Position numbers and translations under genes: made by a program
Part shown: positions 52,182 through 63,670 of the stretch, piece after piece
Position numbering within the stretch: the first letter of the stretch is position 1
Layout: every line of letters begins with the position of its first letter
Notes under the pieces: model-generated
Database searches by the model: none
Told to the model about the DNA's origin: nothing
Seen by the model: the letters and a program-made list of their open reading frames with translations, nothing else
Assembly: GCA_963706575.1 (NCBI GenBank)
Contig: CAVPNL010000006.1
Span: forward strand, 640,001-704,000
DNA: 64,000 nucleotides
Source: an uncultured delta proteobacterium
GTDB lineage: Bacteria; Desulfobacterota; Desulfobacteria; Desulfobacterales; JAHEIW01
Direction of reading: 5' to 3'

Positions 52182-52836
52182 TCCAGTTCGCATACTCATC
52201 GCTGATGACCATACCATTGTTCGCCAGGGTTTAGCGAGTTTGCTGAACGACCAGCCTGATTTGAAGGTCGTCGGCCAGGCCGACAATGGCAGAGCAGCGG
52301 TGGACAAAACGCTTGAGCTAAAGCCGGATATCATCATTATGGATATTGCCATGCCTCAGATGAACGGTATTGAAGCCGTAAAGCGCATAAAGAAGCAAGT
52401 TCCGAAAACCAAAGTTTTGATTCTGTCCATGTATTCCCATGAACATTATATCCATGAGCTTTTAGAAAGTGGTGTGTCCGGCTATCTTCTTAAAGATTCC
52501 AGCGGCCGGGATATTATCAATGCGATTCACGCTGCCATGAACAATGAGACCTTTTTGAGCCCTTCAATTTCCAAGGTGGTTGTGGACACCTATCGATCCC
52601 CCCGCAAAGGAGCCGCCAGTGCGGAGCGTTATAAACGATTGTCCAATAGAGAAAGGGAGGTTTTTCAGCTAGTTGCTGAAGGACATTCCACCCGACAAAT
52701 CGCTGATATGCTTTGTGTCAGCATCAGTACGATCAAATCCCATCGGGCCAAAATCATGGAAAAACTAGAAATCTATTCGCCGGTCAAACTGGTCCATTTT
52801 GCCATCCAGCTCGGATTGGTTGATCCCGAATTATGA
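52174..52836 (+). CDS. NarL/FixJ-family response regulator
   Basis: IADDHTIVRQG, MDIAMP, LSNREREV, HRAKIMEKL. Confidence 0.93.
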   Translation: MANPVRILIADDHTIVRQGLASLLNDQPDLKVVGQADNGRAAVDKTLELKPDIIIMDIAMPQMNGIEAVKRIKKQVPKTKVLILSMYSHEHYIHELLESGVSGYLLKDSSGRDIINAIHAAMNNETFLSPSISKVVVDTYRSPRKGAASAERYKRLSNREREVFQLVAEGHSTRQIADMLCVSISTIKSHRAKIMEKLEIYSPVKLVHFAIQLGLVDPEL

Positions 52837-54713
52837 ATCCAAATAAAAAAATAGGCATCATCACTCTTACCCGTCAGACGAGTTTAGCCTATTCAGCGCT
52901 GAAAAGGATTGTTGAGGACCTGGGATACGAACCCATTTGTGGTGAAGCCATCGGGTCCGATTGTATCTTTTTCCCATTAGAAGAAATCAATCTGGTGGGG
53001 CATGATTTTTTAGCCGAATTTTTTAAAAAGGCAAAGCTGCCAGATGCCGATGTCATTCTAATTTCAGCGCCTTATACGGTTAACTGGTTTATGTTGCCAA
53101 AGGTCGTTCATTGCTTGAGAAGCGTCTGTTCGGCCCCCATCATCCTGGGCGGCAATGAAGCTTCCAACAACTATAAAAATCTGATGGATTTTCGATTCTC
53201 CACTTTTGTGAATGAAGTGGTCGATGTCGCTCCTGATTTCATCGTCAGGGGAGCCGCTGAAAAAGTGTTACCCGACCTTTTACCCCTGCTGGATAAGCGC
53301 ACCCTGGCCAATAACTGGGATCGAGATTTCCTGAAACAATTGCTCGAGATCCCCAATATTGTCTTTTGGCTGCCGGCCAGAAAGGCGCTGATTGCCACTG
53401 ATTTTAACGCTGAAGATTTATCGGAAAAAGATATTTTTTCATATGTGAAATATGGCGAGAAGTCTATTGCGCTAACGTTGCAAAGAGCCTGTATCTGGGC
53501 CAGAAAATCCCGCGGAGGATGTTTATTCTGTGCGATTGCCAGTCAGTTCGGGGACCATTTTCATTGTGCGGTTCAAAGTGATTTTTTTGTAGAAGATCTG
53601 AGCGTATTTTTAAATAAAAACCCCCAGGTTAAATATATCGATATCTGGGATGATACCTTTAATATCAATCCGGAATGGGCGCTTAAAATCTGCCGCTATT
53701 TACAAACCTTAAGTAAAAAAGCCGGACGAAAAATCAGATATTCCTGTTTCCTGAGGCCCAAAGGCTTAACCGAGAAACTCGTCGCACAAATGGCAGACGC
53801 CAATATTCGGACGGCCTTTATCGGCGCAGACGCCATGACCGATGAGCTTTCACGGCGCATGCGAAGGGGCTGCACCATTTCGGAAATGAACACCTCGATC
53901 GCACTGCTGGCCAAAGGAAAAATCCAGCCCCGATTAAGCGTTCAGCTATTTTCGCCTGAGTCCACGATCGATGATGTCGGCATTACATCGACCCTGGCGT
54001 TTGGCTGTATTAAAAATGGGGAATCAACGGTTCACGTCCACCTGTACACCTATCCCTTATATGGATCGGATATCCATAAACTTCTGGCTGCCAGAGGTAA
54101 TTTAAAAAAAATTCCTTCCCCCCTCTTAAAATTTGATAAAAATTGCGGCTTTGAACCCTATTCTATTGCCTATGACTATATGAATTATGACCCTGATGTT
54201 GAAGATATTAAGCTGAAAACATTTAATCTTTTGAACATTGAAACTTCATTCTATGTTCGAACCTACCCCGGCGATACCGTTAATGCCCGGGCGCTCAAGG
54301 AAATTCTAAGCCAGGTCAGAAACTGGTGTTTAGATGTTAAAAAGTCTCAGGCCACCAAATCGCTCTGGTATATGATGATCCTTTTTTGGGAAAATCAAAA
54401 CGAAGGTTTGAGCAAAACGGAGTTGATCGATTGCCTGTCAAAAAATGAGCCGGATGAGCAAGTGCCGCAACATTTAAGAAAGGTCTATGGCAATTTCGGT
54501 TATCGTTACACCTTATCCAGATCATTTAATGAGGTCATGGAAATCCTCATAAAACAGAAATGGGTGAACAAAATAAAAAAAACGAAATACCGTTTGACTC
54601 CGGCCGGGATAAAGGAATTGAAATCGAGGATTAAAGCTGACAAGGTCGGTTCTTATCATATTGCGGCATATGGTGTCATAACCGCCAACGATTTGTTGGT
54701 GCGTCTCGCATAG
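52833..54713 (+). CDS. B12-binding-domain radical SAM protein with Cx9Cx2C motif
   Basis: APIILGGNEAS, DFIVRGAAE; RACIWARKSRGGCLFC; IWDDTF; FIGAD. Confidence 0.78.
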   Translation: MNPNKKIGIITLTRQTSLAYSALKRIVEDLGYEPICGEAIGSDCIFFPLEEINLVGHDFLAEFFKKAKLPDADVILISAPYTVNWFMLPKVVHCLRSVCSAPIILGGNEASNNYKNLMDFRFSTFVNEVVDVAPDFIVRGAAEKVLPDLLPLLDKRTLANNWDRDFLKQLLEIPNIVFWLPARKALIATDFNAEDLSEKDIFSYVKYGEKSIALTLQRACIWARKSRGGCLFCAIASQFGDHFHCAVQSDFFVEDLSVFLNKNPQVKYIDIWDDTFNINPEWALKICRYLQTLSKKAGRKIRYSCFLRPKGLTEKLVAQMADANIRTAFIGADAMTDELSRRMRRGCTISEMNTSIALLAKGKIQPRLSVQLFSPESTIDDVGITSTLAFGCIKNGESTVHVHLYTYPLYGSDIHKLLAARGNLKKIPSPLLKFDKNCGFEPYSIAYDYMNYDPDVEDIKLKTFNLLNIETSFYVRTYPGDTVNARALKEILSQVRNWCLDVKKSQATKSLWYMMILFWENQNEGLSKTELIDCLSKNEPDEQVPQHLRKVYGNFGYRYTLSRSFNEVMEILIKQKWVNKIKKTKYRLTPAGIKELKSRIKADKVGSYHIAAYGVITANDLLVRLA

Positions 54714-54980: not shown

Positions 54981-56057
54981 ATGGCTGAGCTGACTCCCAT
55001 AGAACGAGTACAGCGATTTTTTAATCGCGAACCCGTAGACAAGATGCCATTTTTTTCGGGGATGGGTATGGTCCTCCTGCCCGCGATCAAAAAACTGGGC
55101 TATAACTTTCCATCGGTCCACCGGAATGCCGAGCGCATGGCTCGTTCTGCGATCGAATCTGCCCGAATGTTCAATTTGGATTCTGTTGTGGTTCCCTTTG
55201 ATATGTGCTGGGAATCCGAAGCCCTGGGTAATGAAATCAGTCTGTATGAAGATTCTGAGGATATCCTTTATCCGACCATTCCCTATAAAAATTGGACGGA
55301 AGTGGATCAAGTCGAAATTTCCCAGGACGATATCGACAATATCATGGATAAATATCCGATGAACTTGCTGCCCGAGGCCATCGCGATTGTCAAAAAGGAA
55401 GCGCCGGATCTGGCCCTGGGTGCCTGGCAATTGGGTCCCTTCACCCAGTGCGGCCAGACCATTGAGCTGGATAAGGTCCTGAAGGCGGTTTTCAAAGATA
55501 CCGCACGCGTAGAGGACATCCTGGACAAGTTTTCCGATATGATCATTAATATCGGAAAAGCACTCAAAGCCGCCGGAGCAGATTTTCTTACCCTGAGGGA
55601 ACCCGGGGTGGCTGCAGACCTTCTGAGCCCCAAGACGTTTAAGGAGATGATCGCACCGCGACTCACACGGATTTTGTCGGGCTGGGAGTCACCGAAAGTG
55701 TTGCATATTTGCGGTTCTACCGATCCACTGGTAGAAATGATGTGGCAGATTGTGACCGATTCGGGCGCCCAGGCAGTCAGTTTCGACATAAAAAACAATC
55801 TTTTAGAAACACGGAAAAAATTAGGTGATGACGCCCTGATTGTTGGCAATTTCGATGTCTTCGGGCTGCCCTGTGCGGAAGAAACGACCGTCGAGCAGGC
55901 CATTGCGGGTATCCGGACCAATATTGACGGGAAAATCGATGCGGTCTGGCCGGGTTGTGATCTTTGGCCGGATATCAAAGAAGAAAACTTTAGGGCCATG
56001 GAAAAAACGGCCCGTGAGTATTATGCCGGTCCGACTCCAGCCGTTGGGCGGCTTTAA
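54981..56057 (+). CDS. MtaA/CmuA (UroD-fold) methyltransferase, Cys form
   Basis: PVDKMP, PFDMCWESEALG, GPFT, LHICG and WPGCD Zn ligands. Confidence 0.9.
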   Translation: MAELTPIERVQRFFNREPVDKMPFFSGMGMVLLPAIKKLGYNFPSVHRNAERMARSAIESARMFNLDSVVVPFDMCWESEALGNEISLYEDSEDILYPTIPYKNWTEVDQVEISQDDIDNIMDKYPMNLLPEAIAIVKKEAPDLALGAWQLGPFTQCGQTIELDKVLKAVFKDTARVEDILDKFSDMIINIGKALKAAGADFLTLREPGVAADLLSPKTFKEMIAPRLTRILSGWESPKVLHICGSTDPLVEMMWQIVTDSGAQAVSFDIKNNLLETRKKLGDDALIVGNFDVFGLPCAEETTVEQAIAGIRTNIDGKIDAVWPGCDLWPDIKEENFRAMEKTAREYYAGPTPAVGRL

Positions 56058-56095: not shown

Positions 56096-56767
56096 ATGGC
56101 GAGCAAAGAAGAATTATTTGAATTGCTGAAAGACGGTGTGATCAATTATAAAGAGGAACAGGTCAAGGAAGCCGCGCAGCAAGCGGTCGATGAAGGATAT
56201 GTGGCGCTAGAGATGATCATGGATGGTTTGGCTGCCGGAATGGAGGTCGTCGGTGAGCTCTACGAGAAGCACGAATATTTTGTCCCCGAGGTACTCATGT
56301 GCGCCGATGCCTTATATTTGGGCCTGGATATACTGCGACCGCATGTCCCCAAGTCGGACGCGGGCGCGGTGGCGCAGGTGGTAATCGGCAGCATCCAGGG
56401 CGATGTGCACGACATCGGTAAAAACCTGGTCAAGATGATGTTTGATGTCGCCGGTTGGGAGGTTTATGACCTTGGCCGGGACGTGCCGCTTGAGAATTTT
56501 GTGGAGGAACAGTTGCGGACGGATGCCGAGGTCGTGGCCATGTCAGCCATGATGACCACAACCATGCTGGGTATGAAAAAAGTTATCAAGATGATCAAAG
56601 ATAAGAACCCGGACGTGGCCATCATGTTAGGCGGCGCGCCCGTGACCCAGGATGTCGCCAACCTTTTTGGTGCCGATGGTTATGCCGAGTCTGCCGGGAA
56701 TGCGGTGGCAGAAGGGATCAAGATGATCGGGCGTCTGCGGGAATTCGAAAAAAAGAAGGAAGGGTAA
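56096..56767 (+). CDS. Corrinoid-binding protein (MtaC/MtbC family)
   Basis: GLAAGMEVVG, YFVPEV, GDVHDIGKNLV, SAMMTTT, GGAP. Confidence 0.95.
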   Translation: MASKEELFELLKDGVINYKEEQVKEAAQQAVDEGYVALEMIMDGLAAGMEVVGELYEKHEYFVPEVLMCADALYLGLDILRPHVPKSDAGAVAQVVIGSIQGDVHDIGKNLVKMMFDVAGWEVYDLGRDVPLENFVEEQLRTDAEVVAMSAMMTTTMLGMKKVIKMIKDKNPDVAIMLGGAPVTQDVANLFGADGYAESAGNAVAEGIKMIGRLREFEKKKEG

Positions 56768-56936: not shown

Positions 56937-59003
56937 ATGGGAGACAAGGATAACAACGCGATGGTTATTTTTCAACCGTCGGGACGAAGAGGCGAGGTGC
57001 CTAAAGGCATCAATGTGTTAGAAGCGTCCAGATTGCTGGGGGCTGATATCGAGGCCCTGTGTGGAGAAAAGAAGGTTTGTGGCAAGTGTAAAGTCCGTAT
57101 CGAAGAAGGCCGTTTTGAGAAATACGGCATCGAGTCCAAAATGACCAACGTTAGCGCCTGGCAGGAAGAAGAAGAAAAGTTTATCTTTCCTAAAGAAAAA
57201 GAGACCGGTCATCGATTGGCCTGCGTCTGCGAAATTCAGGGCGATCTTTTGGTTTTCGTACCGGAGGAATCTCGCGCCGGCAAGCAGGTGGTGAGTAAAG
57301 CGGCCCGGGACATATATATCGAGCATAACCCGGCGGTAAAAATTTACACTGTTAAAGTCGACCCCCCCACCTTTGAAGAACCCACCGCAGATTTTGAACG
57401 CGTCTGCCGGGTACTGGAAAAAGAGCACGGACTTAAAGATCTGGCGGTTGACATATTTGCCTTAAGGCAGCTGCCCACGGCACTGCGCGACGGCGATTGG
57501 TGCGTGACGGTCAGTGTCTGGAACGACAGGGAAGTTGTGCGCTTTCGACCCGGCAAGGCCGAGCGCGCTTACGGATTGGCGATCGATGTGGGCACGACCA
57601 CCGTGGCGGCCTATTTTTGCGATCTGACCACGATGGAGGTTGTCGATACGGTCTCTATGATGAATCCCCAGTGCAAATATGGCGAGGACGTCATGGCGCG
57701 GATCACCTATCACATGACCTCTACCGATGGGTTGCAGCGAATGAACGACGACATCATCGAGGGGCTCAATTCTCTGGTCGATCAGGCCATCCAGAACACC
57801 TATCCGCCCAAGAAGAAAAAGAAGAAGAAAAAAGGTGAAGAAGGACCGGCTGAGTTTGTGGAAGTGCCCGAGGAAGGCAAGACCTATCTGCGCCTGACAA
57901 AAGAAGATATTGAGGATGTAACCATTGGGGGCAACACTGCCATGCATCATATTTTTCTAAAACTCAATCCCGAGCATGTGGGGTTGGCTCCTTTTCCCCC
58001 GGTGATCCATCACAGTCTGGACATCAAGGCCCGCGATATGGGCATCAACATCAATCCCGCTTCTTATGTATTTGTGCTTCCCAATGAAGCCGGATTTGTG
58101 GGTGCGGATAACGTCGGTGTGATGCTGGCCGAAGAGCCGTACAAAAAAGACGAAATCTCACTGATTATTGATATCGGCACCAATGGCGAGCTGGTGTTGG
58201 GCAACAAAGAGAAGTTGATCTCCTCTTCCTGTGCGACCGGTCCGGCCCTGGAGGGGGCCCAGATTGCTTTCGGTATGCGGGCAGCCCCCGGGGCCATGGA
58301 ACGCATCGAAATCGATCCTGAAACGCGGGAGGTGAATTACAAGGTGATCGGCCGCGACGCCTGGCGTAAATATTCGGAACCCAAGGACATGAAAGCCAAA
58401 GGCATCTGCGGTTCCGGTATTTTGGACCTGCTGTCTGAGCTCTACTGTGCGGGGATTATTATCAAAAGTGGCGCATTTAACAAAGAAGCGTTAGCGGGGC
58501 ATCCCCGTTACCGATTGAACCCGGATACCAACCAGCCGGAATTTGTTCTGGCCTGGGCGGAGGAATCCAGCATTGATAAGGACATCGTGGTCACCCAAAA
58601 AGATGTCCGCCAGATCCAATTGGCAAAAGGCGCACTTTATGCCGGCTGTAAGCTCATGATGCAACGCATGGGAATGGAGAAAGTGGATACGATCAAAATC
58701 GCAGGTGCTTTCGGCACCCATGTGGATCGCGAAAAAGCGCTGATTATGGGGCTGTTTCCGGACTGCGAGATCGAAAAGATCGAAAGTGTCGGTAATGCTG
58801 CCGGTGACGGTTGCCGAGCGGCGTTGTTGAATAAGGACAAACGGGAGGAAGCCAACTGGGTATCGCGCAATGTGGAATACATTGAGCTGACCGTAGAGGG
58901 AGACTTCCAGACCGAATTCATGGAGGCCATGCAGATACCGCATATGACGGACGAATTTCCGCATCTGGTCGGTGTCGTCCCCGAGGAAATTCTAAATCAA
59001 TAA
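56937..59003 (+). CDS. ATP-dependent reductive activator of corrinoid proteins (RACE; 2Fe-2S + ASKHA)
   Basis: CGEKKVCGKC, RLAC; IDVGTTT, NPQ..YGEDV, DIGTNGE, CATGPALEG, GICGSG, AGAFG, GNAAG. Confidence 0.93.
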   Translation: MGDKDNNAMVIFQPSGRRGEVPKGINVLEASRLLGADIEALCGEKKVCGKCKVRIEEGRFEKYGIESKMTNVSAWQEEEEKFIFPKEKETGHRLACVCEIQGDLLVFVPEESRAGKQVVSKAARDIYIEHNPAVKIYTVKVDPPTFEEPTADFERVCRVLEKEHGLKDLAVDIFALRQLPTALRDGDWCVTVSVWNDREVVRFRPGKAERAYGLAIDVGTTTVAAYFCDLTTMEVVDTVSMMNPQCKYGEDVMARITYHMTSTDGLQRMNDDIIEGLNSLVDQAIQNTYPPKKKKKKKKGEEGPAEFVEVPEEGKTYLRLTKEDIEDVTIGGNTAMHHIFLKLNPEHVGLAPFPPVIHHSLDIKARDMGININPASYVFVLPNEAGFVGADNVGVMLAEEPYKKDEISLIIDIGTNGELVLGNKEKLISSSCATGPALEGAQIAFGMRAAPGAMERIEIDPETREVNYKVIGRDAWRKYSEPKDMKAKGICGSGILDLLSELYCAGIIIKSGAFNKEALAGHPRYRLNPDTNQPEFVLAWAEESSIDKDIVVTQKDVRQIQLAKGALYAGCKLMMQRMGMEKVDTIKIAGAFGTHVDREKALIMGLFPDCEIEKIESVGNAAGDGCRAALLNKDKREEANWVSRNVEYIELTVEGDFQTEFMEAMQIPHMTDEFPHLVGVVPEEILNQ

Positions 59004-59004
59004 A

Positions 59005-59355
59005 TTGCGGTGCATCTTGGCTTCTCAAAAACCAAAATGGGTGTGTGTGACGGTTGATCCGGGAATCTGCGGCTTTCCGTGTGTTATAAAGGCCCGCAAA
59101 ACAGGCGCTCGCGCGGTTTCGCTAAAAATTTCCGGTTCGGATTGCGAGCAGATTCAAAGACTGGCCGAGCGCCTTACGACTTTATCGATAAAAGAGCTGT
59201 TTACACCGCTGAGCCGCAATCCGGTATACATCTCAACTGAAAAGTCGGGTTGCCACCTCTCCTGTGCGATTCCGGTGGCGGTCATCAAGGCGGCTGAAGT
59301 GGCATTGGAGCTGGCGCTGCCGCAGGAAGTCCATATCAAATTCGAAGCGTGCTAG
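59005..59355 (+). CDS. Small Cys-containing conserved protein (DUF6951-like; start may be 59017)
   Basis: DPGICGF, SDC, CHLSCAIP..IKAAEVALELALP. Confidence 0.7.
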   Translation: MRCILASQKPKWVCVTVDPGICGFPCVIKARKTGARAVSLKISGSDCEQIQRLAERLTTLSIKELFTPLSRNPVYISTEKSGCHLSCAIPVAVIKAAEVALELALPQEVHIKFEAC

Positions 59356-59368
59356 GAGCGCAACATCA

Positions 59369-59965
59369 ATGCAAGAATCAAAAGTGGTTCCGTTTAAAGC
59401 CGGTGACGGCATATCGCATACCCTGACCCAGCGTCTGCTGGAAAAGGGCCGGTCATATGGCCTAAATGCGATTTTTCCGTTTGACATCGATAAAATTTCT
59501 GTGGCCGAATGGGTTCATCTTAAATGCCGTTACGGCTGTAACCAGTATAATACGAACTGGTGTTGCCCGCCGGCCACCCCTGATCCGGACAAGGTTCGTG
59601 CCGTTCTGTCGGAGTATTCCACCGCGCTCCTTCTGGTGGGAACCACAAATTGCTCGGACTTTTATCTGAACAACGAACGCAAGCGAATCTCTCAGGTCCG
59701 CTGCTGGAAGGGTACCATCAGCCTGGAACGCATCCTGTTTCTGGAGGGGTATTACAAAGCGTTCAGTCTTGTGGGGGAGTGTTGCGCCCTCTGCAAGGAA
59801 TGCGCCTACCCGGATGATTGCCGCTTCCCGCAAGAAAAAAGACCATCGGTGGAATCATTTTCCATTGATGTCATTGGAACCTTGAAAAATCTGGGTACCA
59901 CTTCAGCGGTTGCCGCTAAAACCTGTGAAACCTACAACTATTATGGCATTATTCTTTTGGAATAA
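59369..59965 (+). CDS. DUF2284-like metal-binding protein
   Basis: KCRYGC..Y..NWCCPP; GECCALCKEC..CRFP..RPSVES.SIDV; RBS AGGAG. Confidence 0.82.
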   Translation: MQESKVVPFKAGDGISHTLTQRLLEKGRSYGLNAIFPFDIDKISVAEWVHLKCRYGCNQYNTNWCCPPATPDPDKVRAVLSEYSTALLLVGTTNCSDFYLNNERKRISQVRCWKGTISLERILFLEGYYKAFSLVGECCALCKECAYPDDCRFPQEKRPSVESFSIDVIGTLKNLGTTSAVAAKTCETYNYYGIILLE

Positions 59966-60195
59966 ACCCCGGAGGGCCATAATCAAAAATGGTTCTTGAC
60001 AATTTTAGTCGACAATGATGATAAGTATTTGTGATTCATCGTTCAGGATTGCTGCAGAGAATTTGCAACTGCGGACGGCTTATCTTTCCACCAGATAGCG
60101 GCAATTAGACCATGAAAGGAGGTGATGAAAAAAAAACGTTTATACAATTTTATGTAAAAACGTGACCCCTAATCAAAAACGAAAGGAGATTCCCA

Positions 60196-61230
60196 ATGGC
60201 CAAACAAATGTTGATCGATGCCTATCGGGGAAAAAGAACGGAAAAACCACCCTGGGTACCATACGCAGGGGTTCACTGCGCCTTTTTGATCAATGAGCCA
60301 GCTGACAAAATGCTCAAGGATCCCAAGCTTTTGGCGAAAGGAGTCGTTAATGCCGCCAAGAGATACAAAGCGGATGGAATTCCACTGGTATTCGATCTTT
60401 CGGTCGAAGCCAATTCCATCGGGTGCGACCTGAAATGGTGGCCCGACAATGTCCCTTCCGTAACCAATCATCCCTGTTCCGACAAGACTCCCAAAGATGC
60501 CGGGCTCAAAATGCCCACCAAAGAATCGGGTCGCTGGCCGGTGCTTTATGAAGCCGCAAGAATTGCCAAACCTCAGCTGGATGAACTCGATTGCGTCCTG
60601 ATGGGTCTATTTTGCGGTCCTTTGACCCTGGCTTCCCATCTGGCCGGTGTGCGTATCTTTACCGATGTTTACAAAAATCCCGATTTTGCCGCCGAAGTTA
60701 TCAAATTTGCCGGTGAAGTCGGCGCGGCAGCTGCAAAGTTCTATGCCGAGATGGGTTGTGAGATTATCGCCATCGTTGATCCGGTGGCCTCACAGATTAA
60801 ATCCGAGACCTTCCAGAAATTTGTCACCCCCAATTCGCAACCGGCGATTAAAGCGATTCATGATGCCGGAGTGACCTCATCATTTTTCATTTGTGGCGAC
60901 TGCACCAAAGTCATGGAAGATGTCTGTAAGATCGGCACCCACGGCTTTGCCATTGATGAACAGCTCAATATGCTTTTTGTGCGGGATCTGGCACGTAAAC
61001 ACGGGGTGGGCTTTGGCGGCAATTTGAAGCTGACGCTGGCCCTGAGCCTCGGGTTATTGTCTCCCAGAGAGGATGCGATTGTGAGCTTGGCAGCAGGCGG
61101 GCAAGAAGGTTATACCTTCGCCCCTGGCTGAGATATGCCTTACGATGTTCCGGTGGAACATATGGATCAGGCCATCGAAGTCAGAGATTGGTTTGAACAG
61201 TATTATGCCAAGTATCCGGAATCTTGGTAA
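60196..61230 (+). CDS. Probable selenoprotein: MtaA/CmuA (UroD-fold) methyltransferase, Sec312 (344 aa)
   Basis: PWVPYAGVH, FDLSVEA, GPLTLA, VDPVASQI, FFICGD; ..FAPG-TGA(61129)-DMPYDVP.. open to TAA 61228-61230; matches PGCD of paralogue 54981. Confidence 0.9.
61145..61161 (+). promoter_or_regulatory. SECIS-like hairpin
   Basis: ATGTTCC-GGT-GGAACAT; loop starts 20 nt after UGA. Confidence 0.75.
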
Positions 61231-61257
61231 ACAATTATAGAAAGGAGGATTCGGATC

Positions 61258-61659
61258 ATGGCAGACAAAATTACCATTGATGTGCTGACACTGGACAGCG
61301 TGCAGTGCGCCGCCTGCGGCTACATGATGGAGTCCATCGCCGCTTTGCCATCTGATGTTCAGGATATGATCGTATACAAGGAATGGTCGATCAAAAACAA
61401 AGATGGCATTGGCAAGTTTCTGGAGCTGAAGGGTAAGGTACTACCGACCATCTGTATCGAGCGGGATCTGGTTTTTGAGAGTATCATTCCGCAATATGAG
61501 GAACTGATCGATGAGATGGCCAAACGGGCGCCGAATGACGATATGCGTGATCGTATCCAGGCCCTGCGCGAAACAGGATTTGAGTTCGATAAAATCCAGG
61601 AGAACCTGGCGAAAGCAGGAGCCGGCATGTCGACGCGCACAGATTCCAAAGTGCAATGA
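61258..61659 (+). CDS. Thioredoxin-like protein, C17AAC20 (Cys paralogue of 41863)
   Basis: DVLTLDSVQCAACGYM, VLPTICI, FESIIP; RBS AGGAGG. Confidence 0.88.
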   Translation: MADKITIDVLTLDSVQCAACGYMMESIAALPSDVQDMIVYKEWSIKNKDGIGKFLELKGKVLPTICIERDLVFESIIPQYEELIDEMAKRAPNDDMRDRIQALRETGFEFDKIQENLAKAGAGMSTRTDSKVQ

Positions 61660-61676
61660 TAACTGTATAAACATGC

Positions 61677-61712
61677 ACAAGCCGGGCCCTGCAAAAGGCC
61701 CGGCTTGTTTAA
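61677..61712 (+). terminator. Rho-independent terminator
   Basis: ACAAGCCGGGCC-N8-GGCCCGGCTTGT followed by TTAA. Confidence 0.7.
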
Positions 61713-61730
61713 TTCTACAGGCCGGGAGAC

Positions 61731-62036
61731 GTGTTCCTATTGGAAACCAATGAAGCGGCTGAAAAACTGAAAACGTTTGTCTTAACGCACGACCTGCCCA
61801 AAACAGACATGGCATTGTTCGGCATTAAATGCCCCTATTGCGGAAAATCCGATCGCATCCGGGAGCTGGAAGAACCGGATGCATTGAGCGCGAAGATAGA
61901 TTCGGAAAATGTGGCCATCTATTTTAACCTATGGGATCAACTTGCCCGCTCAAACGGATCGCTGGCAGTCTGCAAATTTTGTCAAAACCTTCTATTGCTG
62001 CAGGATCAGGCAAGTGCTGCACCCCTGTATGAGTGA
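61731..62036 (+). CDS. Small putative Zn-binding protein
   Basis: CPYC and CKFC pairs. Confidence 0.65.
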   Translation: MFLLETNEAAEKLKTFVLTHDLPKTDMALFGIKCPYCGKSDRIRELEEPDALSAKIDSENVAIYFNLWDQLARSNGSLAVCKFCQNLLLLQDQASAAPLYE

Positions 62037-62386: not shown

Positions 62387-62632
62387 ATGAAAATCGAAGT
62401 TTTAGGGCCCGGATGCAAGCGCTGTGATCAACTCTATGAAAACACCCAAAATGCGGTGGCCGAATTGGATACCCCGGGGCCGATCGAAATTGTAAAAATC
62501 GGGGATATCAATTACTTTGCCAAAATGGGGGTGTTCATGACACCGGGGCTTGTGATTGATGGAGAGGTGGTTTCAACCGGCAAGGTGCTCAGCCCCGATC
62601 AAATCAAGCAAAAGATTGCGGAGAAGATGTAA
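62387..62632 (+). CDS. Small thioredoxin-family redox protein (MTH895-like)
   Basis: MKIEVLGPGCKRC, TPGLVIDG. Confidence 0.9.
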   Translation: MKIEVLGPGCKRCDQLYENTQNAVAELDTPGPIEIVKIGDINYFAKMGVFMTPGLVIDGEVVSTGKVLSPDQIKQKIAEKM

Positions 62633-62635
62633 AGC

Positions 62636-63670
62636 ATGTCGGATGTCACCCGCGTATATTTGATTACCGGTTTTTTAGGCAGCGGTAAAACCACCTTGCT
62701 GAATCGCATTATTCAGCGCTTCCCCAAAGATAAAAAGCTGACACTGCTGGTTAACGAATTCGGTGAAGTCGGTGTGGATGGTACTCTGGTCGAAGGCGAA
62801 GACATCGATATGATGGAAATCAGCAAAGGTTCCATTTTCTGCGTCTGCGTTAAAACCGATTTTATAAAAGGTCTATACGAGCTCAACAGCAAAGTCCAGC
62901 CCGATGTGATGCTGATTGAATCAACGGGTGTGGCCAACCCCTCAGACTTAAAAAAAGATTTAAAACTGCCCATCTTCAATGACCGATTTCATTTCGTGGA
63001 GCAGTTTTGCGTGATCGATGCGGCCCACTTTTTGGATGCATACGGCGTCTATGCCTCTTTAGAAAAACAGATTGCTTCTTCCACCGTATTTATCATTAAT
63101 AAGATTGATACCGCCTCACCTGAAACAATTGAAGAGACTAAAAATGTCATTCGGCAGTTTCATCCCGATCCATTTTTTTACGACACCACCTATGCCGACA
63201 TCCCGCTGGCGGATTTTTTTGATTTAGCAGAACTGGATTTGCCCGATTCCGAAGTGCCGGAACCTAAAAAGGCAAAAGTGTCGGTTCTTTCGGAGGAAGC
63301 GCTTGACCAATTTATTGATGACCTCCTGGATAGCCCGGATCTTGAAATTACGCCACCGGACACGCTCATGTCCGTTACCTATAGCTGGAACGGAGACGAT
63401 CTGGAGCAGGTTAGAGCTATGGCCGAGGCTTTACCCCCTGCTGTAGTCAGGGCCAAGGGGTTTGTCGAAGAAAAAGGTGACATGTATTTGTTCAATTATG
63501 TCATGGGCGATTGGACCGTTGAAAAAACCAATGTGCCCAAGGATCGCATCCAAAACAAAAATATTGTTGTTTTTATTGGGCCGCCTGAATCTATGGAAGG
63601 AATCGAAGGGGCATCCAAAACAGGTGATTGGACCGGCAGAGGGGTATTTCAACCTTACTCGCAAACTTGA
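62636..63670 (+). CDS. CobW/COG0523 G3E GTPase metallochaperone
   Basis: GFLGSGKTT, NEFGEVGVD, GSIFCVC, IESTGVA, NKID, RAKG. Confidence 0.92.
   Translation: MSDVTRVYLITGFLGSGKTTLLNRIIQRFPKDKKLTLLVNEFGEVGVDGTLVEGEDIDMMEISKGSIFCVCVKTDFIKGLYELNSKVQPDVMLIESTGVANPSDLKKDLKLPIFNDRFHFVEQFCVIDAAHFLDAYGVYASLEKQIASSTVFIINKIDTASPETIEETKNVIRQFHPDPFFYDTTYADIPLADFFDLAELDLPDSEVPEPKKAKVSVLSEEALDQFIDDLLDSPDLEITPPDTLMSVTYSWNGDDLEQVRAMAEALPPAVVRAKGFVEEKGDMYLFNYVMGDWTVEKTNVPKDRIQNKNIVVFIGPPESMEGIEGASKTGDWTGRGVFQPYSQT

Follow-up and report, generated by a model that had tools for sequence, protein, structure and literature searches.

Introduction

The closest described systems are the methylcobamide:coenzyme M methyltransferases MtaA, MtbA and MtsA of Methanosarcina (4AY7/4AY8). 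According to the excerpted text of PMC8318568, MtbA serves MtmB in methanogens. The Kountz and Balskus preprint (PMC10418091) gives His-Cys-Cys as the zinc ligand set of S-methylating UroD-family enzymes, and ascribes a His-Cys-Cys coordination sphere, with few exceptions, to the Mlps. It further reports that type 1 mlp gene clusters, which include SdmB/SdmC of Methanococcus voltae, have a strong genomic link to selenium use, and that ClMlp2 catalyses methyl transfer from methylcobalamin to selenide. No Sec-containing Mlp is described in that paper, in whose text "TGA" marks other genes of the clusters. MT2-A and MetE share their ligand set (excerpt of PMC539065). The bacterial "MtaA" of acetogens was considered as an equivalent of the protein described below and rejected, because it is grouped not with UroD but with pterin-binding MTII proteins, i.e. 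MtvA, MtqA and AcsE (PMC13222342).

To our knowledge, nearly all selenoproteins are redox enzymes or Mo/W/Ni enzymes. Among proteins of methyl transfer and metal(loid) handling, a 2026 review lists selenoprotein forms of HgcA (CU), ArsM (UxxG), MbdU and the Sao proteins (PMC13188914). They share with the present case a Sec at a predicted soft-metal- or substrate-binding Cys, a role in methyl-transfer or organometallic systems, and a distribution in anaerobes; they differ in that they have other folds and belong to other families, none of which is in the URO-D superfamily.

Here we describe a gene for a predicted selenoprotein, MlpSec, in a window of 64 kb (the whole stretch of DNA that was analysed). 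Its internal stop is predicted to be a Sec codon, so that a B12-linked methyl-transfer enzyme would have selenium where its relatives use a zinc-binding Cys. MlpSec has the fold of MtaA/MtbA/MtsA and the I-C-G and A-P-G-C motif positions, its gene adjoins those for a corrinoid protein and a reductive activase, and its distant orthologues follow an MtmB-family gene. In contrast, it is only 24% identical to MtaA, has Phe for the His ligand, Sec for the distal Cys and an extra Cys236, is accompanied by a probable thioredoxin-like partner of its own and a CobW GTPase, and occurs in bacteria of the sulfate-reducer type instead of Methanosarcina. As far as we know, coenzyme M is not expected in such bacteria. 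The ligand pattern of MlpSec is Phe-Cys(-x-x-Cys)-Sec and departs from the His-Cys-Cys rule for the Mlps. The window contains two MtaA-like genes, a corrinoid protein and RACo, and may represent a type 1 mlp cluster.

Reading frame and gene product

The following features, all on the forward strand, define the gene:

60196..61230, forward strand: MlpSec, predicted URO-D/MtaA-fold methyltransferase-like selenoprotein, 344 aa, U312
60181..60188, forward strand: Shine-Dalgarno-like GAAAGGAG, 5′ of ATG 60196, read from the sequence
61129..61131, forward strand: TGA, predicted selenocysteine codon 312 (APG-U-D), the same codon in 14/14 site-spanning orthologue matches
61145..61161, forward strand: SECIS-type hairpin ATGTTCC / GGT loop / GGAACAT, identified by synonymous-site invariance and likeness to SECIS elements of its own genome
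60886..60903, forward strand: F231-I-C233-G-D-C236, at the position of the MtaA H-x-C zinc motif (HMMER, 73-homologue table, DSSP)
54981..56057, forward strand: MlpCys, canonical MtaA-like paralogue with H-I-C ... PG-C-D (PF01208, residue table, conserved synteny)

The frame starts at ATG 60196, contains the in-frame TGA at 61129-61131 and ends with TAA at 61228-61230. If TGA is read as U, the protein continues as ..GYTFAPG-U-DMPYDVPVEHMDQAIEVRDWFEQYYAKYPESW. A preliminary description of this DNA had proposed that the frame extends beyond the TGA up to position 61230; the coordinates were exact, and the downstream coding is conserved. It had also placed the Cys of the PGCD motif of the paralogue at the position of the TGA, and BLASTP does pair U312 with that Cys. 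Its expectation that standard annotation truncates the gene was borne out: pipelines call a protein of 311 aa, and 117 of the 120 nearest database clusters stop at ..APG and are therefore truncated at the TGA. The residues after U312 belong to the fold, because the HMMER alignment to MtaA reaches residue 333, and the block-mean pLDDT of the AF2 model is at least 95 through residue 330. Both the alignment and the model indicate that a product stopped at the TGA would be without the last helix of the barrel.

Positions 60144-61720 are covered by RNA-library contigs of four studies, and one of these contigs bridges the TGA; such contigs are no proof of transcription and are silent on translation. 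The gap in their cover at 59900-60082 was considered as a transcript start, and is not evidence for one.

Conservation of the TGA codon, the hairpin and the Sec machinery

The preliminary description had listed what would speak against selenocysteine, i.e. a sequencing error, close homologues that all have Cys and no hairpin, or a genome without selB/selC. Each of these checks came out in favour of selenocysteine. Codon 312 is TGA, and never TGY, in all 14 orthologue matches that span the site, which were found in 13 of 61 related genomes with identities of 66-100% and are spread over several families of the order. The same codon is present in 14 independent assemblies. The 31-33 codons after the TGA are conserved, the synonymous changes fall outside the hairpin, and the pattern indicates purifying selection on the 33 codons 3′ of the TGA. 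Cys forms are a minority (3 of the 120 best database clusters): P0006, P0068 and P0098 are 76-80% identical to MlpSec and read APGCDMP, as does P0122 with 61% identity. The wider family has mostly Cys in the U312 column of a residue table of 73 homologues.

The perfect 7-bp hairpin of the preliminary description is present, with arms at 61145-61151 and 61155-61161 and the GGT loop at 61152-61154. Its stem begins 13 nt past the TGA; counted from the U, the loop G is at +23. Among 13 full-length orthologues, no other stretches of invariant nucleotides in the gene are as long as gene nucleotides 950-958 and 960-965, which correspond to the hairpin. At 171 codons the amino acid is degenerate and invariant; all 13 use a single codon at only 6 of them, and three of these six positions (V318, P319 and E321) are inside the hairpin. 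The geometry and the GG-containing loop resemble the hairpins that follow the TGAs of FdhA, SelD and FlpD in the same genome, e.g. the FdhA hairpin with a GGUCU loop at +21. The consensus for bacterial SECIS elements, reportedly given by Zhang and Gladyshev in 2005, is a stem-loop that closely follows the UGA and has a small apical loop containing G, and the MlpSec stem-loop agrees with it (7-bp stem, GGU loop at +23).

When the 62 nt after the TGA were folded alone, the minimum free energy was −13.3 kcal/mol with a z value of −0.10 against shuffles, i.e. there was no excess stability. The hairpin is marked by conservation, and thermodynamic stability alone does not mark the element. An Rfam scan of 61050-61300 with E values up to 10 yielded no SECIS family and only chance matches, e.g. 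L19_leader with E 0.21. We gave this result no weight, because Rfam has no general bacterial SECIS model that matched.

The genome contains selA, selB, selC and selD, namely the gene for tRNA-Sec on contig C3, a SelB wing domain (63.9 bits), SelA (521 bits) and two SelD genes, each of which has an in-frame TGA. Further TGA-containing selenoprotein genes are present. The gene next to MlpSec ends with TGA TAA, and TGA is therefore otherwise a stop here. Taken together, comparative genomics shows that 60196-61230 has the properties of a gene for a full-length, 344-residue selenoprotein with the URO-D/MtaA fold, the UGA at codon 312 being predicted to be decoded as selenocysteine with the aid of the hairpin at 61145-61161.

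Fold and active-site positions

MlpSec matches PF01208 with an E value of 2.1e-47 over residues 3-329, across the TGA. The AF2 model has a mean pLDDT of 96.6, and the comparison of a predicted structure with MtaA, which had been proposed as a check, gave MtaA entries as the best Foldseek matches (4ay8, TM 0.88; 4ay7, TM 0.86). In a sequence search of the PDB, MtaA was the only match (E 9.2e-24). The score for TIGR01463 (mtaA_cmuA, NCBIfam) is 134.5 bits, below the cut-off of 235.4, and the scores for the NCBIfam equivalog models of MtaA and MtbA are far below their cut-offs.

HMMER alignment to 4ay7 pairs U312 with the Cys of APGC and F231-I-C233 with H-I-C. The His-Cys-Cys zinc ligand set (H-x-C ... 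G-C) is thus replaced by Phe231, Cys233 and Sec312. The segment F231-C236 lies between strand 227-231 and helix 237-245 (DSSP of the model), and the FFICGD seen earlier continues as FICGDC, adding Cys236 beyond F231 and C233. On the basis of the alignments, MlpSec is shown to group within an MtaA-like clade that has Phe for the His of the H-x-C motif, and Sec312 to align with the distal zinc-ligand Cys. The central claim of the preliminary description, a Sec codon at this position of an MtaA/CmuA-like methyltransferase, is supported, and every test that was run against it came out in its favour.

Two of its statements on the motif stood in part. The change from His to Phe was confirmed, but it is not specific to the Sec form, as it is found throughout the clade, including Cys-containing relatives. 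Phe231 does take the place of the His ligand, but a metal site is not necessarily lost, because Cys236 and an acidic residue at the MetE/MT2-A-type carboxylate position are available. The Sec subfamily has the extra Cys236 and keeps the acidic Asp254. In the table of 73 homologues, the Phe-type clade keeps C233, D254 and C312, while a sister group that has neither Cys has also lost D254 in 7 of 9 rows. That C233, C236, D254 and U312 are close to one another is presumed from the homology to MtaA.

Gene neighbourhood and a probable thioredoxin-like partner

The neighbourhood contains the following further features:

56096..56767, forward strand: corrinoid (B12-binding) protein (Pfam B12-binding, B12-binding_2)
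56937..59003, forward strand: RACo/AcsV-type reductive activase of corrinoid proteins (Pfam RACo_C_ter, Raco_middle, RACo_linker, Fer2)
59005..59355, forward strand: DUF6951 gene (Pfam)
59264..59965, forward strand: ORF with uncertain start, DUF2284 Cys-rich "predicted metal-binding" gene (Pfam)
61258..61659, forward strand: Trx133, thioredoxin-like, C17-A-A-C20 and C66 (synteny, homology to a fused C-terminal domain)
61680..61711, forward strand: GC-rich inverted repeat followed by a T-run, terminator-like, after Trx133 (read from the sequence)
62387..62632, forward strand: Trx3, second small thioredoxin-like protein, MTH895/ArsE family (Pfam Thioredoxin_3)
62636..63670, forward strand: CobW/COG0523-type metallochaperone GTPase (Pfam cobW, CobW_C)

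MlpSec is encoded together with its cognate corrinoid protein (pyl_corrinoid of NCBIfam, 197.4 bits, cut-off 215.3) and the reductive activase (an AcsV-like NCBIfam match below cut-off), and the synteny is conserved. Two selenoproteins, MbdU and ArsM/DUF2284, have C-terminal domains that the DUF2284 gene resembles below cut-off; an in-frame TGA was looked for within the DUF2284 ORF and not found. Trx3 scores 83.8 bits against TIGR00412 (cut-off 62), and both Trx3 and cobW are syntenic in 6 of 8 loci. A thioredoxin-reductase-like gene (TRX_reduct, 254.9 bits, below the cut-off of 343) lies beyond the terminator-like site and further genes.

The gene context points to a possible function as MT2-type methylcorrinoid:acceptor methyltransferase. 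At one orthologous locus (L026), the operon comprises genes for a corrinoid protein, an MtmB-family methyltransferase, MlpSec, Trx133, Trx3 and CobW, and no other candidate for the second methyltransferase was found among the ORFs scanned there. The ORFs scanned around MlpSec include no pterin-binding MT2.

In 7 of 8 orthologous loci, Trx133 is the gene immediately after MlpSec, and the protein is near-invariant among 8 orthologues; its match to the NCBIfam model HUIPC_Trx_selen is weak and below cut-off. It shares 45% identity (E 3e-21) with the C-terminal domain of P0132, one of the Phe-type URO-D proteins of many phyla that have a Trx133 homologue fused to their C-terminus. Gene fusion and synteny make Trx133 a likely binding partner of MlpSec. 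The fused proteins have about 455 aa and were seen under generic names only ("uroporphyrinogen decarboxylase family protein"); their hosts include Synergistota, Bacillota, Bacteroidota, Kiritimatiellota, Planctomycetota and others. Like MlpSec, they belong to the Phe-type clade (99 in the tree), have the F-x-C ... G-C-D pattern and have cobW and corrinoid-protein genes as neighbours. Unlike MlpSec, to which they are 33-39% identical, they contain Cys instead of Sec and have no Cys236, and barrel and thioredoxin-like domain form one chain instead of two proteins. In other phyla, cobW adjoins them in 7 of 16 loci. They are found beside MttB and a corrinoid protein (L051, L052), beside MtaB (L054), and beside a URO-D paralogue and a corrinoid protein (L076).

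An alignment of the fused proteins has F, C, C and the CxxC in 109 of 110 rows, and the remaining row is the unfused query, so that there is no variation at the five positions with which correlated loss could be tested. That the Cys pair of the barrel tends to be lost together with the CxxC of the partner was considered and rejected, as only P0156 shows such a joint loss.

Proposed function and alternative explanations

The best overall explanation, to which we give slight preference, is that MlpSec is a Sec-decoded, metal-site MT2-type methyltransferase that works with Trx133 and CobW. That it is an MT2-type component with a metal site, most likely zinc, for activation of the acceptor is proposed with about even confidence. 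MlpSec would take a methyl group from the methylated corrinoid protein and pass it to a soft (thiol- or selenol-type) or other acceptor, which would be activated by a metal, most likely Zn, bound by Cys233, Cys236, Asp254/Glu255 and Sec312. Cys236 would substitute for the lost His, and with the selenolate of Sec312 the site would be softer and more reactive. The metal would be loaded by the CobW GTPase. Trx133 would dock on MlpSec as the domain does when fused in relatives, and could keep the Cys and Sec ligands reduced or complete the site.

The canonical His ligand of such a site is absent. In the wider Phe-type clade there are only two Cys and an acidic residue, perhaps not enough ligands to bind Zn stably. 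Besides Zn, CobW-family proteins can serve Co. The presence of two thioredoxin-like proteins and a thioredoxin-reductase-like gene nearby fits redox turnover as well as maintenance.

A metal-free redox centre is a possible, although doubtful, alternative, and adds a third reading to the two of the preliminary description, which had named a methyl-accepting nucleophile and an altered metal ligand. Cys233, with Cys236 as a CxxC, and Sec312 would form a redox-active selenenylsulfide. Trx133, together with the second thioredoxin-like protein and the thioredoxin-reductase-like enzyme, would recycle it at every turnover, and methyl transfer would be coupled to a two-electron thiol/selenol step, e.g. 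generation or release of the acceptor. The clade-wide loss of the His is compatible with this, as is the location of C-G-D-C at a strand-to-helix junction (the N-terminus of helix 237-245), like a thioredoxin-type CxxC. Nearly all of the relatives examined have a thioredoxin-like CxxC domain, either fused or adjacent, Trx3 and the thioredoxin-reductase-like gene (TRX_reduct below cut-off, as given above) are encoded downstream, and P0156, a single case, lacks both active-site Cys as well as the CxxC. However, the Phe-type clade has kept D254, and the sister group has mostly lost it along with the Cys pair, a pattern that fits a metal site. The CobW metallochaperone is a persistent neighbour, and the reductase-like gene is separated from the cluster by the terminator-like site and further genes. 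We know of no corrinoid methyl transfer that requires a dithiol reductant, so that redox-coupled chemistry of this kind is hypothetical. The zinc-ligand Cys of MetE and BHMT form disulfides when oxidised, according to the titles of PDB entries 1xr2 and 1lt7. Sec generally evolves from redox-active Cys and usually does not replace structural metal ligands (excerpted text of PMC1794560), which favours the redox centre and argues against Sec as a metal ligand.

It is improbable that Sec312 itself, free or zinc-bound, is the methyl-accepting or -relaying nucleophile, comparable to the Ada thiolate. The selenolate would attack methyl-Co(III) or a methylated substrate, and the resulting Se-methyl enzyme intermediate would be passed on, or resolved by a neighbouring Cys and Trx133. 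Selenolates are stronger nucleophiles than thiolates, Sec is found at the exact place where MtaA activates the substrate sulfur, and Cys233, Cys236 and the thioredoxin-like partner are candidates for resolving the intermediate. A zinc-bound Cys is the alkyl acceptor in Ada, a protein listed among those of zinc thiol alkylation (excerpt of PMC539065). In contrast, a selenoether is a poor methyl donor, so that it would have to be activated further for turnover, and no evidence of this was found. A much weaker S-methyl route would have to serve the Cys-form orthologues and the whole Cys-containing Phe-type clade, and no precedent was found in the literature searched.

It is very unlikely that MlpSec is not a selenoprotein, i.e. 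that the TGA is a true stop in a truncated gene or pseudogene, a sequencing error or a site of non-Sec readthrough. The pipeline-derived entries, which stop at this codon in 117 of the 120 best clusters, the lack of a matching Rfam SECIS model and a lone hairpin no more stable than shuffles are compatible with this. They are opposed by 14 independent assemblies, 66-100% identical, that share the TGA and show purifying selection behind it, full-length forms with Cys at this position, constraint on the hairpin at the RNA level, a complete Sec machinery with other TGA-containing selenoprotein genes, the last barrel helix that a truncated product would miss, and the TGA TAA end of the neighbouring gene, which shows that TGA is otherwise a stop.

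As a wider reading, which we regard as possible at best, we tentatively propose a previously unrecognised, phylum-spanning second-methyltransferase module of a Phe-type URO-D protein, a thioredoxin-like CxxC protein or domain and CobW. The module would pass methyl groups from MttB, MtmB-like, MtaB and URO-D corrinoid systems to an acceptor other than coenzyme M. Its active centre would extend across two proteins, with the Cys/Sec of the barrel and the CxxC of the partner, and selenium would be an upgrade in sediment sulfate reducers. If true, this would be the first natural Zn-selenolate alkyl-transfer site, or else a selenenylsulfide-coupled methyl transfer.

Database status and occurrence

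A URO-D/MtaA-family selenoprotein is not mentioned in the literature searched, i.e. the main texts of PMC13188914, the deep-Sep paper (PMC12013277), the Olavius symbiont paper (PMC1976440), Haft and Gwadz (10.1101/2022.07.06.499078), Kivenson et al. and PMC1242214. The text of the review PMC13188914 contains none of the terms PF01208, MtaA, CmuA, uroporphyrinogen and methylcobamide. The family is in none of the selenoprotein lists searched and has no NCBIfam model; gene callers and NCBIfam-type rule sets could include it. Because databases systematically truncate the family, models of methyl-group metabolism in sulfate reducers are built on a broken gene.

Selenium at the substrate-activating zinc position of a corrinoid methyltransferase would extend selenium biochemistry to alkyl transfer. 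The destination of the methyl group in bacteria with MttB-, MtmB- and MtaB-type systems has been a question since such systems were found outside methanogens, and the link to thioredoxin-like and CobW proteins across phyla points to an uncharacterised step in the fate of methyl groups without coenzyme M. The family comprises more than 100 clusters at 90% identity in data from marine, estuarine and wetland sediments, and DNA and RNA libraries from 17 studies contain parts of the window.

Reading frame across the TGA

The preliminary description had proposed that standard annotation truncates a gene for an MtaA-like protein, in which a TGA at the conserved PG-C-D cysteine, followed by a perfect hairpin, encodes selenocysteine. 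The open frame and the hairpin are present in the sequence as described:

60196-61230: MlpSec, the protein of URO-D/MtaA fold (ATG 60196, TGA 61129-61131, TAA 61228-61230)
61145-61161: hairpin with a 7-bp stem (arms 61145-61151 and 61155-61161, loop GGT 61152-61154)
61258-61659: Trx133, a thioredoxin-like protein of 133 aa, starting 27 nt downstream of MlpSec

The start codon is preceded by GAAAGGAG, and 32 in-frame codons lie between the TGA and the TAA. ORF calling yields only a 311-residue form (60196-61131), and read-through of the TGA results in 344 residues with U312. The URO-D model of Pfam spans residues 3-329, TGA included (E 2.1e-47). U312 pairs with the Cys of PGCD in the canonical paralogue at 54981-56057 (BLASTP). 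Among PDB sequences, only MtaA of Methanosarcina mazei is matched (4ay7, E 9.2e-24), with "lhICGN" aligned to "ffICGD" and "lAPGCg" to "fAPG(U)D", so that both comparisons place the TGA at the conserved Cys.

Conservation of the selenocysteine codon

The gene was found in 13 of 61 genomes, i.e. the source genome and 60 relatives. All 14 matches that span the site (66-100% identity, several families of the order) contain exactly one internal stop, a TGA, which is codon 312 in every full-length copy extracted. The flanking residues are [FY]-T-F-A-P-G on the N-terminal side and D-[MI]-P-[YF]-[DN]-V-P-[VA]-E-H on the C-terminal side, and the frames close at TAA or TAG, 31-33 codons further on. Among the best 120 protein clusters, 117 stop at ..APG (116 with 311 aa, one with 295 aa), as expected for truncated annotation, and only three are full-length Cys forms (343-344 aa, APGCDMP). 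Selenoprotein families are typically recognised by such an exchange of Sec and Cys within an otherwise conserved context, which supports the Sec reading of the TGA.

The source genome, in which the window is C6:640001-704000, has complete Sec machinery, i.e. tRNA-Sec, SelB, SelA, and two SelD. Both SelD genes carry a TGA themselves, and further genes with a TGA were found, each with a downstream hairpin (contig:positions):

C5:349796-350719 and C3:439308-439886: SelD (the latter seemingly recovered as two fragments)
C6:896254-898260: FdhA
C5:248257-249012: second Fdh-like gene
C4:343776-344144 and C4:3547-3915: FlpD/MvhD

RNA-library contigs from four separate studies cover 60144-61720, and one of 372 nt bridges the TGA, which shows presence in RNA libraries, not translation. 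The best-supported differences of these contigs, a set to which 167 further differences do not belong, include none at 61129-61131 or in the hairpin.

No other nucleotide stretch in the gene is as conserved as the hairpin. Across 13 full-length orthologues only 45% of all columns are invariant, and the hairpin arms correspond to the two longest runs of invariant columns (gene nt 950-958 and 960-965). Only 6 of 171 codons for an invariant degenerate amino acid are identical in all 13 sequences, and three of these (V318, P319, and E321) fall inside the hairpin. Variation is confined to the third loop base (GGU to GGC) and, in one genome, the outermost pair. The predicted stability is unremarkable (z -0.10 versus shuffles), and no Rfam family matched the region. 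The FdhA, SelD, and FlpD hairpins of the source genome share the general build, with stems of about 5-8 bp that start about 13-19 nt past the UGA and a small loop, which contains GG in most cases; the loops are GGU at +23 in MlpSec and GGUCU at +21 in FdhA.

The TGA is thus almost certainly a genuine Sec codon, and MlpSec is a real, widespread, and systematically mis-annotated selenoprotein. The overall claim of a Sec-containing protein with an MtaA-like methyltransferase fold is borne out by the conserved TGA, the Cys forms, the Sec machinery, and the constraint on the hairpin. A search of openly accessible full text retrieved no paper that mentions a URO-D-superfamily protein with Sec. A URO-D-family selenoprotein was likewise not found in the family table of a 2026 selenoproteome review (PMC13188914), deep-Sep (PMC12013277), the Olavius study (PMC1976440), and the Haft & Gwadz preprint (10.1101/2022.07.06.499078).

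Fold and ligand positions

A confident AF2 model built from an alignment of 73 sequences (mean pLDDT 96.6, pTM 0.94) matches MtaA best (4ay8, TM 0.88; 4ay7, TM 0.86). Uroporphyrinogen decarboxylases rank next, and the Zn/homocysteine barrels of MetE and BHMT are more distant matches. The residues after U312 are predicted to form the last barrel helix (320-336), and therefore the 311-residue form would be incomplete. MlpSec scores far under the cut-offs of the NCBIfam models MtaA/CmuA, MtaA, and MtbA, and no selenoprotein-specific NCBIfam model matches it. Because it falls short of the curated MtaA/CmuA family on two defining counts, missing the score cut-off and lacking the His-Cys-Cys triad, we call it MtaA-like, in fold and in probable role, rather than a member of that family. 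Among characterised proteins, MtaA, MtbA, MtsA, and the Mlps of type 1 mlp clusters are closest to it. The family is rather isolated: a search of 1.84 billion cluster representatives retrieved one full-length Cys form with 61% identity (P0122), after which identities drop to 27-39%.

Within the 73-homologue alignment, the nearest relatives mostly have F-x-C-G ... G-C-D, and more distant homologues have the canonical H-I-C-G ... G-C-[DE]. In the maximum-likelihood tree, MlpSec and four Cys forms are a group with support of 100, which nests in a clade of 38 rows (support 99; 22 Phe-type, 14 with other residues, and 2 His); the remaining 35 rows are all His-type. Therefore, His was already lost in the ancestor of a large clade, within which Sec arose from Cys. 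The His ligand is indeed replaced by Phe in MlpSec, as had been noted, but this is not specific for Sec and is shared with a large Cys-containing clade. Cys236 is an additional hallmark of the Sec subfamily (FICGDC in 107 of the 120 best clusters).

MetE has the ligands His, Cys, Glu, and Cys. According to PMC539065, MT2-A uses the ligand set of MetE. The acidic position D254/E255 of MlpSec is aligned to "VEE" of MtaA, and D254 is retained in Phe-type proteins. The sister group of the Phe-type clade (support 100; P0173, P0187, P0193, P0202, P0207, P0215, P0218, P0227, and P0241) has lost the ligand positions, typically with L-x-R ... W: both Cys positions are missing, and D254 is lost in seven of the nine members. 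In these URO-D-fold proteins, metal or thiol chemistry at this site is precluded.

The thioredoxin-like partner

Trx133 follows MlpSec directly in seven of eight loci examined and is almost invariant among orthologues, including C17-A-A-C20 and C66; it has no Pfam match. In several relatives from the Phe-type clade, an added C-terminal domain brings the length to about 455 aa; in the fused relative P0132 this domain is 45% identical to Trx133 (E 3e-21). Both weakly match the NCBIfam HUIPC thioredoxin-like (seleno)protein. The fused form is common, with 4778 proteins at E ≤ 1e-20 (7999 candidates scored), and a scan of species-representative genomes confirmed 223 loci. By record title, the best 80 of these 223 belong to Synergistota, Bacillota, Bacteroidota, Kiritimatiellota, Planctomycetota, Verrucomicrobiota, Lentisphaerae, Fibrobacteres, Spirochaetales, and delta-proteobacterial MAGs. 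The F, C, C, and CxxC pattern is intact in 109 of 110 aligned rows, the odd one being the unfused query. The fusion is good evidence that MlpSec and Trx133 would work together physically.

Gene neighbourhoods

Gene order was compared in eight related-genome loci, some of which are cut by contig ends. Five share the gene order of the window, namely histidine kinase, response regulator, canonical His-Cys-Cys MtaA-like protein, corrinoid protein, RACo-type activase, DUF6951, DUF2284, MlpSec, Trx133, small 4-Cys ORF, MTH895/ArsE-type thioredoxin-like protein (Trx3), and CobW GTPase. The most distant orthologues (72% and 66% identity) have another setting. In locus L026, the order is GntR regulator, corrinoid protein, 460-aa MtmB-family protein, MlpSec, Trx133, Trx3, and CobW, adjoining genes for histidine ammonia-lyase-type proteins and urocanase. 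MlpSec of L027 is flanked on one side by an MtmB-family gene with a corrinoid protein and on the other by a canonical URO-D paralogue; an MttB-family gene and a urocanase are close by.

The two MtmB-family proteins (PF05369, monomethylamine methyltransferase; 460 aa; L026:8075-9457 and L027:3812-5194) lack an internal stop and therefore apparently pyrrolysine; no NCBIfam model matched them. GntR/UTRA regulators and corrinoid proteins are among their neighbours, and they may represent a demethylation route for a methylated histidine derivative.

For the fused homologues, 65 of 128 neighbouring ORFs at 16 loci were scanned (a 17th chosen locus was dropped, its central gene not being called). CobW is adjacent in seven loci, a corrinoid protein was found in five, MttB in two (once with a BCCT transporter), MtaB in one, and URO-D paralogues in two. 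Fused Phe-type genes also occur in Lutibacter oricola (L076) and Pontiella sulfatireligans (L107), polysaccharide-degrading Bacteroidota and Kiritimatiellota, beside URO-D paralogues, a corrinoid protein, CobW, a MetH-activation-domain protein, P450, and AraC regulators; therefore, the fused module is not confined to strict anaerobic methylotrophs.

Proposed role

The substrate-specific first methyltransferase next to MlpSec and a corrinoid protein differs between loci, and several operons have MlpSec as their only further methyltransferase-like gene; no pterin-binding MTII was found among the ORFs scanned. This context suggests, by analogy with MtbA and MtaA, that MlpSec is probably an MT2, which would transfer the methyl group from a methyl-Co(III) corrinoid protein to an acceptor.

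The URO-D-type MT2 enzymes known so far use zinc to activate a thiol (PMC10418091 and PMC539065). At the Zn-site positions MlpSec has three chalcogen residues (C233, C236, and U312) and an acidic residue. Together with the constant neighbourhood of a metallochaperone-type GTPase, this leads us to favour, at about an even chance, a metal site with Sec312 as a ligand. A metal-free Cys/Sec redox couple serviced by Trx133, the main alternative, is less likely; it draws support from the loss of His throughout the clade, the location of the CxxC at a helix start, the obligatory thioredoxin-like partner, and the fact that Sec as a rule replaces redox-active Cys. A covalent Se-methyl intermediate at Sec312, the other idea of the preliminary description, is unlikely, as its turnover would be chemically harder. 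Candidate acceptors would be sulfide, selenide, a small thiol, or homocysteine. ClMlp2 has selenide methyl-transfer activity (PMC10418091), which makes Se or S acceptors attractive; however, ClMlp2 is a His-Cys-Cys protein, unlike MlpSec.

Further genes in and near the cluster

52833-54713: B12-binding radical-SAM protein (626 aa)
59264-59965: Cys-rich DUF2284 protein
61731-62036: 101-aa ORF past a terminator-like site
C6:703791-708556 (L020:9791-14556), just beyond the window end: genes past CobW

The radical-SAM gene, with weak PhpK-like and HpnJ-like matches, lies between the two-component regulator and methyltransferase genes. A counterpart between the response regulator and the canonical MtaA-like gene was seen only in L022, the closest relative examined, and was not detected in L023. 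The DUF2284 protein is similar, below cut-off, to two NCBIfam double selenoproteins in their C-terminal domains, MbdU (E 3e-24) and ArsM/DUF2284 (E 1e-21), and its gene has no TGA in the window; the listed GTG start, which overlaps the DUF6951 gene, is probably too far upstream. Past CobW, the source genome encodes a thioredoxin-reductase-like flavoprotein, a GcvH-like protein (opposite strand), a PadR regulator, a second CobW-like GTPase, and a MIP-family channel. The 101-aa ORF has the Cys pairs C-P-Y-C and C-K-F-C and no Pfam or NCBIfam match. It is conserved in place at five of eight orthologous loci (51-84% identity) and therefore probably encodes a genuine protein of the MlpSec cluster, small and zinc-ribbon-like.
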